Origin: an uncultured Dehalococcoidia bacterium
Lineage (GTDB): Bacteria; Chloroflexota; Dehalococcoidia; Lucifugimonadales; GCA-2712585
Direction: 5' to 3'
DNA length: 64,000 nt
Assembly (NCBI GenBank): GCA_958295715.1
Contig: OY282371.1
Span: forward strand, 1,406,267 to 1,470,266
In this document: piece by piece, positions 27,225 to 62,700 of the stretch
How the letters are laid out: each line of letters opens with the position of its first letter
Position numbering within the stretch: position 1 is the stretch's first letter
Program-made: the position numbers and the translations under genes
Notes under the pieces: model-generated
The model's database searches: none
Seen by the model: the letters and a program-made list of their open reading frames with translations, nothing else
What the model was told of the DNA's origin: nothing

Positions 27225-27701
27225 ACGCCTCTCGCCCCCTGCCGGCCATCGACCCTCCCTTCCGTCATTCCCGCGCAGGCGGGAAGGGCACGCGTGCCCG
27301 CTTAGGTTTGAAGAGCGTGGTTCTGCGTTGGAGGCTTTTGCCCACCCCTATCCGCATTCCCGCCCTCTTATCCGTCATTCCCGCGCAGGCGGGAATCGAT
27401 CCCCTCCTTCCGGCATTGCGACGGGGCAACGGCGCAACGGCTCGCAACCCCGGCCCTCTTTCCGTCATTCCCGCGCAGGCGGGAATCCATCTTCCACCCC
27501 TCTATTACGCCAAGGCGACCCGCGCAAATCGCCGGCAAACGCTTGCCCCCTTTCCGGCCAAGACCCTGAATGCCCCCCATATCGTCAAGGAGACAAGGAC
27601 GGCAGCGCCACGAGGGACGCGCCGGAAACGCCTCTGCGGGTGAGACCGGAATTCGGGGCGCCGGATTTGGGTCGGGGCCTCCCTGGATTCCCGCCTGCGC
27701 G
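27225..27701. repeat. REP/NIME-like repeat cluster
   Basis: Composite fwd unit at 27264-27335 (REP + GGGCACgcGTGCCC + T-rich tail). Fwd REPs at 27374-27398 and 27464-27488. Module C at 27556-27664. Truncated rev REP at 27685-27701. Confidence 0.85.
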
Positions 27702-27755
27702 TAGAAACCAGGGAGGGAGGCGGGCCTGGGAGAGCGAGCGACCCCCGTCCGGAGT

Positions 27756-28124
27756 CTAGAACTTCAGCCGGGTTTTGCGATGGGCTACTGTGATGACCTG
27801 GTATTCCATACAGCCAACGACGCCGCCTGTGGACTTCACGACAACCAGGTAAATGTTAAAGGCCTCGCTCTGCCTCTTATACCCCTCGGCGCCTATCTTA
27901 GAGCGGGCGCGCCTGCGGCATCTGCTATCCATTGAAACGATGTATACGTTCTTATTGTCACGCTTCTTATTAGACTTACGATATTTGTGGTGTCTGAGTT
28001 TGCCATTGAGCAACATGGTTTCTATGTGTTCCCGATTTATTCCGCGCTGCTGGAACCTCCTTTGAGCGTGATCCGAGAAAAAGTAACTGAAACCGGGGTC
28101 ATGGTAGAAATTCACCACGTTCAT
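27756..28124 (-). CDS. DUF4258-like small protein (toxin-type fold)
   Basis: 122 aa, low GC (line 27961 hand count 40%). FSDHAQRRFQQRGINREHIETMLLNG and a C-terminal NIYLVVV..VITVAHRK pattern. Confidence 0.55.
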   Translation of the reverse strand: MNVVNFYHDPGFSYFFSDHAQRRFQQRGINREHIETMLLNGKLRHHKYRKSNKKRDNKNVYIVSMDSRCRRRARSKIGAEGYKRQSEAFNIYLVVVKSTGGVVGCMEYQVITVAHRKTRLKF

Positions 28125-28264
28125 GTGAAACCTCCCTTAAGTTATGTTCTCTGAAGCTGCTGCGCCCAAACCTCGCCCACAGATTAACCATAAATCAGGC
28201 TGTGCGGGGATATTTACGACGGGGCGAGCGGCATGGCGCCGCGACTTCAATTCAGCGAAAAAGT

Positions 28265-28292
28265 ATTATAACACAAAAGAGCATTTTGTCAA
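28265..28292 (-). promoter_or_regulatory. near-consensus promoter TTGACA-16-TATAAT
   Basis: Minus-strand hexamers at 28292-28287 and 28270-28265. About 135-nt leader to the ATG at 28124 with a GGGAGG RBS. Confidence 0.5.
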
Positions 28293-28337
28293 GTACTTAT
28301 GCGCCGGATTTCAGGGGAAATAGGGGGATGGGGGGAT

Positions 28338-28443
28338 GGATTCCCGCCTGCGCGGGAATGACGGACAGGAGGCGGGAATGCGGACAGGGGTAGGCAGAAG
28401 CCTCCAACGCAGAACCGGCTCTCTTCAAAACTAAGTGGGCGCC
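28338..28443. repeat. REP unit plus reverse hairpin/terminator-like module
   Basis: Rev REP at 28338-28362. Reverse module B at 28399-28443 (ccaacgcagaaccggctctcttcaaaactaagtGGGCGCCC), about 60 nt downstream of the stop of the 590-aa gene and in terminator orientation. Confidence 0.8.
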
Positions 28444-34680: not shown

Positions 34681-34996
34681 GTCATTCCCGCGCAGGCGGG
34701 AAGGGCGCGTGCGCCCACTTTGTCTTGACGAGCGTTCGCCCTGCTTTGGGCTGCTAGATTCCCGCCTTCACCTCTGTTCCGTCATTCCCGCGCAGGCGGG
34801 AAGGGCGCGTGCGCCCACTTTGTTTTGAAGAGCGTTGGTCCTGCTTTGGGCTGCTAGATTCCCGCCTCCCCCATCCGTCATTCCCGCGCAGGCGGGAAGG
34901 GCGCGTGCGCCCACTTTGTTTTGAAGAGCGTTGGTCCTGCTTTGGGCTGCTAGATTCCCGCCTCCCCATCCGTCATTCCCGCGCAGGCGGGAATCC
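34681..34996 (+). repeat. tandem array of 3 composite units (100, 96, 95 bp) plus terminal REP
   Basis: Units start at 34681, 34781 and 34877. Each unit = GTCATTCCCGCGCAGGCGGGAA + GGGCGCgtGCGCCC + ACTTTGTTTTGA.. + tggtcctgctttgggctgctagattcccgcc. Closing REP at 34972-34996. Confidence 0.9.
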
Positions 34997-60639: not shown

Positions 60640-60986
60640 GGCTTTCATGGGCGGGGTTGCCTCCCGTCCGTCATTCCCGCTCTCACCCTCTTATCCGTCA
60701 TTCCCGCGCAGGCGGGAAGGGCGCGTGCGCCCACTTAGTTTTGAGTAGCGCTGGTTCTGCGCGTTAGGTGTCCGTCATCCGCCGCCGGGTTACCCCCGTT
60801 CCAACGCGCGCCCCTCCCTTCGTCATTCCCGCTCCCTCCCTTCCGTCATTCCCGCGCAGGCGGGAAGGGCGCGTGCGCCCACTTAGTTTTGAGGAGAGCC
60901 GGTTCTGCGTTGGAGGCTTCCCGGCGTTCCCACCTCCCCACTCGTCATTCCCGCTTCTCCCTCCCGTCATTCCCGCGAAGGCGGGA
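60640..60986. repeat. REP/NIME-like repeat cluster, right end interrupted by IS
   Basis: Composite fwd units at 60697-60768 and 60845-60917 (GGGCGCgtGCGCCC hairpins). Half-units at 60669 and 60830. REP at 60966-60986 is cut after GCGGGA. Confidence 0.85.
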
Positions 60987-61977
60987 TGTGAATTCACATT
61001 TCAAGTGCAACACCTTGTTCCGGAAAGTTTCGGCTGGGGTCCGGTAGTCCAGACACTTGCGAGGGGTGTGGTTGTAGGCTTGGACCAGTTGGGTGAAGCG
61101 CTCCTCGGACACCGCCGCCAGGTCGGTCTTGCGGGGCAGGGTCCTCCGCAGCCGGCCAATGGCGTTCTCCACGCCGCCCTTCTGCCAGGGGGAGCGGGTG
61201 TCGCAGAAGAAGGTCTGGATGCCGAGGGCGTGGAGAAGGTGGTGGCGGGCGAACTCCGTGCCGTTGTCGAAGGCGACCGTCTGGCGCCACTCCTGGGGCA
61301 AGGGCCCCAAGGGCCTCGGCGATAGCAGTGGCGATGGGTCCCGCGGCCTTCCCCGGGGGTCTGAGGGCTATGAGCAGGCGGGTGCAGCGCTCGTGGAGGA
61401 TGAGGACGACTTGGCCGTAGGCGCTGAAGAGCATGGTGTCGGCCTCCCAGTGGCCCGGCTTCTGGCGGTCATCCGCATCCTGAGGACGCTCTTCCAAGGG
61501 CAGGCGGTCGGGGATGAAGGACACGGAACTGCCGCCCCGGCGCCCCCGCCAGCCTCGTCTGGACTTGCGCCGGGGCAGGTAGAGCCGCCAGGAGTAGTCC
61601 TTCCTGCGGGCTATCTGGGCGTAAATGAACCGGTAGATAGACTCATGGGAGATGACCGTCCTTCCCTTCTCCAGGGCCAGCCGGCCGGACACCTGCTCCG
61701 GGGACCAGCCTAGCTCGAGACGGGCGAGGACATCCTCCCGAAGGGTGGGGTCGCGGGTCAGCCGGTGACCGTGCCAACGGCGGGCGTGGGCCTGTTGGTC
61801 GGCGTACTTGGGCCGGTAGCCGCCATTGGCCGAAGGATTGCGCTTCAACTCCCGAGCAACCGTTGATGGCGAGCGATCCAGAGCTGCCGCGATTTGGCGG
61901 AGGGAGTGTCCCGTGGCATGTAGTCGGGCAATTTCACACCGTTCCACAATGTCGAGCTGCGTGTAGTGGAGTCCCAT
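60945..61977 (-). pseudogene. IS30-family transposase, frameshifted
   Basis: N-terminal HTH + core in the frame of ORF 60994-61977 up to ..AIAEALG. C-terminal ..LPQEWRQTVAFDNGTEF..PWQKGGVENAIGRLR in the frame of ORF 60945-61310. The shift maps to a GGGG run near 61305. The distal frame has no stop inside the IS. Confidence 0.75.
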
Positions 61978-62021
61978 GGCAACACCTCAATTAAGTGTTG
62001 CACTTCGTTTGTGAGTTTAGC
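60987..62021 (-). mobile_element. IS30-family insertion sequence (about 1035 bp)
   Basis: Imperfect terminal IRs sharing ..TCACA....AAGTGCAACAC (left at 60987-61013, right at 61995-62021). An IS30-type DDE transposase lies inside. The flanks reconstitute one REP unit with a GA duplication (60985-60986 / 62022-62023). Confidence 0.8.
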
Positions 62022-62700
62022 GAATCCATCCCCCCTTATCCCCGTTGCGACAGGTGGCTGGCGCGGGATTGCCTCCCCGTCCGTCATTCCCGCGCCCTCC
62101 CTTCCGTCATTCCCGCGCAGGCGGGAATCCATCTCCTCTTATCCCCGTTTCGACAGGTGGCTGGCCCGTGGTTGCCGCCCCGTCCGTCATTCCCGCTTCC
62201 CTCTCCCGTCATTCCCGCGCAGGCGGGAATCCATCCCCTCTTATCCCCGTTGCGACAGGTGGCTAGCGCGTGGTTGCCGCCCCGTCCGTCATTCCCGCCC
62301 CCCTCCATCCGTCATTCCCGTGAAAACGGGAATCCAGGAACCCTTCATGGCAAAACCAGCGCTTCAACCCCTAGCGTCGCCTTGTGGGCGGCCCTCCGGC
62401 CCGCCGCTCGTAGGGGTTGGGTTGTCCGTTCATATGATTAGAGGGGGAAGATGGATTCCCGCCTGCGCGGGAATGACGGATTCGGGGGGCGGGGTTCGGG
62501 GCGCTGGCTCTGCGTTGAGGCCTTCCTGGATTCCCGCCTGCGCGGGAATGACGGGAAGGGAGGCGCGGGCGGTGGTAGCGAGCGTGACCGGTGGCCCCGG
62601 GGCTTGGGGCGTTGGCTTTGGGGTGTAAGGTTCCTGGATTCCCGTTTTCACGGGAATGACGGATAGGGGGGCGGCAATGACGGATTCGGGCGGGAATTCA
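62022..62700. repeat. REP/NIME-like cluster with a 3 x 102-bp tandem array
   Basis: Tandem units begin at 62022, 62124 and 62226 (..GAATCCATCCCCTCTTATCCCCGTTGCGACAGGTGGCTGGCGCGTGGTTGCCGCCCCGTCCGTCATTCCCGC..). REPs at 62106, 62208 and 62311 (variant) fwd. REPs at 62453, 62528 and 62636 (variant) rev. Confidence 0.9.

Follow-up and report, generated by a model that had tools for sequence, protein, structure and literature searches.

We analysed a 64,000-nucleotide stretch of the genome of an uncultured Dehalococcoidia bacterium (contig OY282371.1; hereafter the window), which carries at 60987-62021, on the minus strand, an insertion sequence (IS) of the IS30 family. This element very probably transposed into one unit of a hairpin repeat of the NTS (Neisseria Transformation Sequence)/dRS3 type, as a member of a clade that prefers one fixed position and orientation within such repeats and borrows the repeat's stop codon. 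Taken together, the evidence leans somewhat towards a broader reading, in which an undescribed IS30-family clade consists of dedicated, orientation-specific parasites of NTS/dRS3-type repeats across several phyla, its DDE transposase reading a target of ~30 bp with single-nucleotide precision and the target supplying the last six codons and the stop of the transposase gene.

The element and the repeat unit that it interrupts

The element is 1035 bp long, with ends set by homology to 80 relatives (described below), and its transposase matches NCBIfam NF033563; on the plus strand it starts with TGTGAATTCACA... at 60987 and stops with ...GAGTTTAGC at 62021. The left flank GTCATTCCCGCGAAGGCGGGA (60966-60986) and the right flank GAATCCATCCCC (from 62022) hold the two parts of one plus-strand repeat unit. 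The left part, 60966-60986, comprises the 5' flank GTCAT, the left arm ATTCCCGC, the loop GAAG and GCGGGA of the right arm, and the right part, 62022-62034, reads GAATCCATCCCCC, in which the GA at 62022-62023 repeats the GA at 60985-60986. The right arm of the palindrome is the part split by the element. Once the element and one GA were removed, the joined sequence (60942-60986 followed by 62024-62081) aligned with the two tandem units that follow, at 62080 and 62182, and showed no gap at the junction; the colinearity extends ~50 bp past the palindrome, indicating that a tandem array was already in place and that the element interrupts one of its units. For one random insertion into these 64 kb, the probability of falling at this position in any of the ~27 units is roughly 4e-4.

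A preliminary description of this locus had placed an IS30-family element precisely inside a palindromic unit and had proposed that removal of 60987-62021 and one GA rebuilds that unit. Its coordinates and flank sequences match the sequence, the ends derived from the 80 relatives bear out the placement, and the gapless alignment to the two neighbouring units confirms the rebuilding. The possibility that it had raised against itself, namely that the true ends might differ, did not materialise, as the unit is also rebuilt with the ends taken from the relatives.

With up to two mismatches allowed, the window contains 27 copies of the palindromic unit, GTCATTCCCGCGNAGGCGGGAA, whereas 0 are expected from 100 shuffles. 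Most units continue ATCCAT... or ATCCAG..., a second class continues AGGGCGCGTGCGCCC..., and 19 of the 26 uninterrupted units continue ATCCA... or ATCGA.... NTS has been described as an oriented hairpin repeat with a 28-nt consensus, CGTCATTCCCGCGMAVGCGGGAATCYRG, that contains the dRS3 palindrome; related 'SRM' repeats are found in many bacteria, and the Ssn single-strand nucleases were described in 2025 (PMC11893778). Matches to the NTS 28-mer at up to two mismatches number 23 in the window, two of them exact, where 0 are expected. Judged by sequence, what the preliminary description had called a REP (repetitive extragenic palindrome) is therefore the published NTS/dRS3, an Ssn-related hairpin repeat. 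As DNA, an intact unit folds into a hairpin with 8 bp in the stem and 4 nt in the loop (-8.9 kcal/mol, z-score -3.3 to -4.0), and the unpaired NTS flanks CGTCAT and TCCAK are conserved.

The assignment of the element to the IS30 family rests on several features. Once its frameshift was repaired, the transposase matched NF033563, the IS30 equivalog, with 234 bits against a cut-off of 80, over profile positions 1-267 of 267. An HTH_38 domain occupies residues 4-47 (E-value 1.9e-16), the rve domain gave a weak core match, and the D, D and E residues of a DDE transposase are visible as D(GHWEADTM), D(FDNGTEF) and E(GGVENAIG). The layout is also that of the family, with one frame in 1035 bp between terminal inverted repeats, and the relatives span 1028-1037 bp. 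The left inverted repeat (IRL), upstream of the transposase at 61995-62021 on the minus strand, reads GCTAAACTCACAAACGAAGTGCAACAC from the outside in, and its core TCACAAACGAAGTGCAAC is conserved in 80 of 80 relatives. Its partner in inverted-repeat pair I1, the right inverted repeat (IRR; 60987-61013, plus strand), reads TGTGAATTCACATTTCAAGTGCAACAC from the outside in, and the transposase frame reads through it as V-L-H-L-K-C-E-F-T. The two repeats are imperfect, their arms at 60991-61013 and 61995-62017 being 78% complementary.

Position, orientation and stop codon across the clade

A scan of one genome per species provided the relatives, which comprise 80 loci on ~45 contigs, with transposases 62-75% identical and 78 of the loci having readable flanks. 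Their hosts are Dehalococcoidia, other Chloroflexota, Nitrospirales, Binatia and alphaproteobacterial metagenome-assembled genomes (Bradyrhizobium, Pseudolabrys). On transposase sequence the elements with roughly at least 50% identity form a compact clade, mostly from uncultured Chloroflexota, Nitrospirales and Binatia. Plasmid records held no relative at 50% identity or above, which fits a clade known only from uncultured genomes.

The ends of the relatives show strong conservation, and the boundaries defined from them, N-CTAAACTCACAAACGAAGTGCAAC ... TGTGAATCCAC-N, give 60987-62021 when applied to the window. Counting 79 relatives and the window copy, 58 of 80 elements are 1034 bp long. A perfect 3-bp direct repeat lies exactly at the boundaries at 66 of 79 sites, window included, which validates them. 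The preliminary description had called for the inverted repeats and the target duplication to be checked across copies: the inverted repeats and the ends were confirmed, and the duplication proved normally to be 3 bp, so that the 2 bp it had reported are visible in the window but are not the usual length. In addition, the duplicated bases follow the local variant of the repeat, with TTC accompanying ...GGGAAT, TAC accompanying ...GGGTAT, TGC accompanying ...GGGCAT and TCC accompanying ...AGGAT; CCC was also seen. Such matching is predicted by local transposition, and not by the copying of one flanked segment.

At L003, L004, L017, L022, L039 and L056, both flanks are repeat-like and the 3-bp 'duplications' are one base off or mismatched, for example TAC versus TTC. 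This suggests either recombination between copies residing in different repeat variants or later mutation.

Rebuilt in the orientation of the gene, the consensus target is CTGGA[TTC]CCGCnTnCGCGGGAATGACGG, which is NTS in reverse complement. The duplication corresponds, on the NTS strand, to the GAA of GCGG[GAA]TCC; these bases occupy positions 5-7 of the 8 nt in the right arm and lie close to the repeat's 3' end. A stem of at least 6 bp starting at the duplication on the IRR side was present in 63 of 78 relatives, TGAC at positions 19-22 in 59, and NTGGA upstream in 52; all three features were found together in 42 of the 78 and none of them in 4. The orientation is invariant, with IRR always toward the hairpin body and the ...ATGACG flank. 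NTS-like hairpins occur at ~0.34 per kb in the relatives' loci, occupied ones counted, and random insertion at this nucleotide and in this orientation would be expected ~1 in 10^4 times, corresponding to a several thousand-fold enrichment. These comparisons used the NTS consensus and a hairpin test, since the published degenerate SRM pattern, which as implemented is strict on loop and stem letters, spanned 29 of 79 rebuilt targets. The earlier suggestion of a REP-targeting IS30 relative is thus upheld as a strong preference, with 63 of 78 relatives sharing one position and one orientation in an NTS-like hairpin, but not as an absolute rule.

Copies in the window's own genome agree with this pattern. 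The XDH-like gene of the window is 100% identical to P0274, which is encoded on a 2,349,492-bp contig, and that contig carries four intact 336-residue paralogues of the transposase (P0001 and its cluster mates P0121, P0122 and P0123). Compared with the repaired window product, P0123 has 1 difference in 330 residues and the other three have 5-10. All four paralogues end ...HLKCEFT-FPPARE*, and FPPARE with its stop is what TTCCCGCCTGCGCGGGAATGA, the repeat in reverse complement, encodes, indicating that the repeat abuts IRR in the same register in each intact copy. The preliminary description had proposed inspecting the flanks of other genomic copies, and on the IRR side this outcome agrees with its expectation in 4 of 4 cases. 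No copy above 75% identity was found in the genome-collection scan (one genome per species), and an element-specific 31-mer had 0 matches in metagenome contigs.

The same register determines where the transposase gene ends. Of 75 intact relatives, 74 lack a stop for the transposase frame within the element, and in 56 of the 75 the frame closes exactly 21 nt beyond the tip, with the TGA of GGGAATGAC. A 6-residue tail after ...CES(T) was found in 86 of the 120 closest database proteins, mostly as F[PLR]xx[RQP]E, the commonest forms being FPPARE, FPPSRE, FLPPQE and FPLSRE; most longer tails start alike, where the local repeat reads GAATGG or GAACGA. Off-target copies carry long, arbitrary C-terminal extensions, such as P0005 (444 aa) and P0020 (395 aa, corresponding to L026). 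By contrast, many of the more distant IS30-family relatives (36-47% identity, among P0140-P0270) end ...VALQT*, ...VALEM* or ...CCTS*, stopping inside IRR, and they read the same conserved inverted-repeat core, GTGTTGCACTT, in other frames. What sets the NTS-targeting clade apart from them is therefore a change of frame right where the gene ends, and the open-ended frame is a feature of the compact clade; in a search of the whole library, only a handful of 50%-identity clusters shared it. The borrowed stop explains why the products are uniformly 336 residues long and why hundreds of database proteins carry odd 'FPPSRE' tails.

The window copy departs from the canonical form at two places. Its transposase frame (60945-61977, minus strand; ATG at 61977) has no stop within the element and is split, running from 61977 to ~61306 and then from ~61308 to 60987 and beyond. 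The cause is a +1 frameshift, one extra base in the plus-strand CCCC at 61305-61308 (GGGG on the coding strand, where the paralogues need GGG), and this base accounts for the length of 1035 bp rather than the usual 1034. At 60986 one A is missing, and because of this the 3' part of the frame is extended, reading ...CEFT-SRLRGNDGREKRE* up to a stop at 60945-60947. A duplication of only 2 bp was seen in 0 of 78 relatives, nearly all of which have 3 bp, and the GA/GA of the window copy is therefore read most simply as a GAA duplication of 3 bp from which one A, at 60986, has disappeared. The window copy looks like a decayed, defective element with a frameshifted pseudogene. Both anomalies are changes in homopolymer length, and either real decay or an assembly error could have produced them. 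Poor assembly as the cause of the frameshift was considered by checking four places in the window where two frames overlap on one strand, and none resembles a broken gene: in three of the four the frames match different Pfam families, and in the fourth only one open reading frame had a match. These spot checks gave no indication that frameshift errors are common across the window.

Proposed mechanism and alternative readings

In the mechanism that we propose, staggered cuts would flank GAA in GCGG[GAA]TCC on the NTS strand. After insertion, IRR would adjoin the hairpin body and IRL would adjoin ...TCCAG, giving a canonical copy with the layout ...CTGGATTC, element, TTCCCGCC...GGGAATGAC and a duplicated TTC. 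The transposase frame of a canonical copy reads six codons of the repeat, typically F-P-x-x-R-E, and ends at the TGA of GGGAATGAC.

The transposase would recognise an asymmetric duplex site of ~30 bp, probably via its N-terminal helix-turn-helix as in IS30. The best-conserved parts of the target are CGTCAT, the G/C positions of the stem and TCCAG, and the unpaired flanks are its most informative positions. Recognition of an asymmetric duplex is suggested by this distribution and by sites with a ruined arm (L013, L018 and L023), which still work, in register, when TGAC lies at the right distance. It is improbable, in our view, that the target is instead read as a structure, such as a hairpin on single-stranded DNA or an extruded cruciform, or through a host protein bound to the repeat, for example an SsnA-type nuclease. 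Compensating stem changes between genomes (ttcccgc/gcgggaa, ttcctgc/gcaggaa, ttccggc/gccggaa and tacccgc/gcgggta), with closely similar elements using all four variants, are what reading of a structure would produce, and SsnA does bind NTS as single-stranded DNA (PMC11893778). Against this stand the ruined-arm sites and the informative flanks just described, and a motif search limited to the 64-kb window and the short flanks of the 80 loci, a small part of each genome, yielded no GIY-YIG match in any frame. IS30 itself reads its hot spots through an N-terminal helix-turn-helix, and enzymes of the family act on duplex DNA (cited in PMC1525189), which also argues for duplex recognition.

A resemblance of the IRR tip GGTGGATTCAC to the target CCTGGATTCCC was also considered as a sign of end-targeting in the style of IS30, and rejected. 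The likeness is weak, the insertion point lies inside the matching stretch and not beside it, and the IRR of the window copy matches less well.

Transposition would proceed via a circle, as in IS30, and joining of the ends would create a promoter consisting of TTGAAA, a 17-bp spacing and TAAACT. In the window, the putative -35, TTGAAA, lies at 60999-61004 on the minus strand, 12 nt from the IRR tip, and the putative -10, TAAACT, at 62014-62019 on the minus strand, 2 nt from the IRL tip; the spacing is 17 bp if a 3-bp spacer joins the ends. TTGAAA or TTCAAA is present at that position in 76 of 80 elements (79 relatives and the window copy), and TAAACT, TAGACT or TAAATT in 57 of 80. The integrated window copy has no promoter-like site upstream of the transposase, whose start codon is 45 nt from the tip.

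The repeats may act as harmless intergenic landing sites, and it is in this sense that we infer the 'safe haven' role put forward in the preliminary description. The intergenic position of the repeats bears equally on a very improbable alternative, in which insertion is nearly random and the pattern arises because copies survive in harmless repeats that offer an immediate stop. The long and variable C-terminal extensions of the off-target products P0005 and P0020, which might impair the enzyme, would also fit survival. However, selection cannot give single-nucleotide register and fixed orientation on both sides at 63 of 78 sites when such positions make up ~1e-4 of the DNA, and other intergenic DNA would be equally harmless. 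It is barely credible that the hairpin belongs to the element, for example as a terminator, making the true element ~25 bp longer at the IRR side with no targeting at all: its presence after IRR in those 63 relatives and its supply of the stop codon are as expected of an internal feature, but the 3-bp duplication directly flanks the 1034-bp core and not the core plus hairpin, CTGGA and the duplication upstream of IRL complete the repeat, copies of one element lie beside different variants that match their own duplication (L006 TGC, L011 TAC, L005 GGT), L023, L026 and L044 are clean insertions free of a hairpin, and repeat units outnumber the element 27:1 in the window.

Several points weigh against our preferred reading, the insertion of a targeting IS30-family element into a pre-existing repeat unit. 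L016, L026, L044 and L075 show none of the scored target features, so the preference is not absolute, and duplications are clean at the non-hairpin sites L016, L023, L026 and L044, of which L023 keeps, among the scored features, only TGAC, with ATGACG in register. The window copy duplicates 2 bp and not 3, and is the sole copy of the element within the 64-kb window; the four paralogues can be viewed on their IRR side alone, via the protein tails. Most of the relatives' loci come from metagenome-assembled genomes, and some of their flanks could be misassembled. An empty-site allele was not found in the one related genome examined, L081 (ENA ERZ25067264, 1.70-Mb contig), which has no repeat array at the locus: its XDH is 81% identical, the intergenic region is 135 bp, the neighbours upstream of XDH are different and 12 kb hold no NTS units, suggesting that the repeat arrays are not conserved at this locus between related genomes. 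Finally, target recognition, the circle intermediate and the junction promoter are derived from sequence and from knowledge of IS30.

Repeat arrays and relation to known systems

The interrupted unit lies within an array of repeats. Upstream of it (60660-60965, plus strand), the array has NTS units at 60697 and 60845, both of which lead into a GGGCGCGTGCGCCC hairpin and then a T-rich tail. Downstream (62035-62661), it has plus-strand units at 62105, 62207 and 62310 and minus-strand units at 62451, 62526 and 62634. At 60660-60965, 27264, 34681-34898 and 12747, NTS units form composite arrays of two kinds that resemble neisserial intergenic mosaic elements (NIME). One kind runs into the GGGCGCGTGCGCCC hairpin and ACTTAGTTTT, which together are terminator-like, and a half unit, GTCATTCCCGC, lies ~12 nt upstream of each full unit.

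At 27463-28363 we observed a ~500-bp island of 47% GC, compared with ~65% GC for the host, bracketed by inverted NTS units at 27463-27490 (plus strand) and 28336-28363 (minus strand). Its cargo is a 122-aa DUF4258 frame (27756-28124, minus strand; PF14076, E-value 8e-7). The NTS-gene-NTS layout resembles the NTS-ssnA-NTS layout of the Ssn nucleases, with a different cargo.

The insertion may also have consequences for the repeat itself. SsnA binds NTS as single-stranded DNA and cuts 5' of the repeat, its binding depending most on the C just after the palindrome, and the ssnA gene (GIY-YIG) is often flanked by repeats in the same genome (PMC11893778). Insertion of the element parts the hairpin from this C, and the element could thereby interfere with the repeat's own function via SsnA.

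The family prototype, IS30 of E. coli, targets the midpoint of a symmetric hot spot of 24 bp, generates 2-bp duplications, and forms a promoter when its ends are joined. The present clade shares with IS30 the transposase family, the domain order, one frame that fills a ~1-kb element, inverted repeats of ~26 bp, a duplication of 2-3 bp, targets that contain a palindrome and ends that would form a promoter when joined. Unlike IS30, it inserts off-centre, 2-4 bp inside one arm of a hairpin with an 8-bp stem, in one orientation, and duplicates 3 bp, which belong to one arm and not to the dyad of the palindrome, where an IS30-type hot spot would have them. The analogy with palindromic IS30 hot spots drawn in the preliminary description thus holds for the palindromic target and fails for its symmetry. 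The clade also differs from the more distant IS30 relatives, whose stop lies in IRR, in having a frame with no internal stop.

REP-specific insertion is documented for elements of the IS3, IS110, IS4, IS256 and IS5 families, with examples including IS1397 and ISKpn1 (IS3 family), ISPsy8, ISPa11, ISPpu9, ISPpu10 and IS621 (IS110 family) and ISRm22 (IS4 family) (PMC1525189). Tobes and Pareja (2006) termed the case in which every or nearly every copy lies at one REP position a 'type 1 association'; their survey holds no IS30-family case of REP targeting, and the IS30-family element IS1655 lay near REPs in only 2/13 and 2/6 copies (PMC1525189). In the present data, the window copy and 4/4 paralogues are in register at IRR, as are 63/78 members of the clade. 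Like the REP-targeting elements, the clade has most of its copies at one position of a repetitive extragenic palindrome; unlike them, it has a transposase of another family and chemistry, a target of the NTS/dRS3 type in place of enterobacterial or pseudomonad REPs, and a stop borrowed from the target.

Known dRS3/NTS systems of Neisseria share the repeat (0-2 mismatches to NTS), and the arrays described above resemble neisserial ones. dRS3 is a known integration site of the Nf1 filamentous prophage (PMC3898611). Nf1 integrates with an IS110-like recombinase and SsnA cuts single-stranded DNA 5' of the repeat, whereas the elements of the clade are DDE transposons whose insertion point is close to the repeat's 3' end, with hosts among Chloroflexota, Nitrospirales and Binatia rather than Neisseria. 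The Ssn paper does not mention IS30 elements (PMC11893778), and a literature search, which was incomplete and did not include ISfinder, brought up no description of IS30-family elements targeting REP, dRS3 or NTS; we therefore regard IS30-family targeting of NTS repeats as provisionally new.

In summary, our analysis would add the IS30 family, with its classical cut/copy DDE enzyme, to the REP-targeting insertion sequences, with a target that is long, asymmetric and precisely read. NTS, whose characterisation as the substrate of the Ssn nucleases dates from 2025, has until now been considered mostly in Neisseria and other Pseudomonadati, and here it is abundant in a Chloroflexota-type genome, in NIME-like arrays and as a transposon landing pad. 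A DDE transposase with a defined target of ~30 bp would be a candidate tool for directed insertion. A stop codon supplied by the target is unusual for a transposase gene and, if our reading is true, the quality of the transposase would be tied to landing in the right place.

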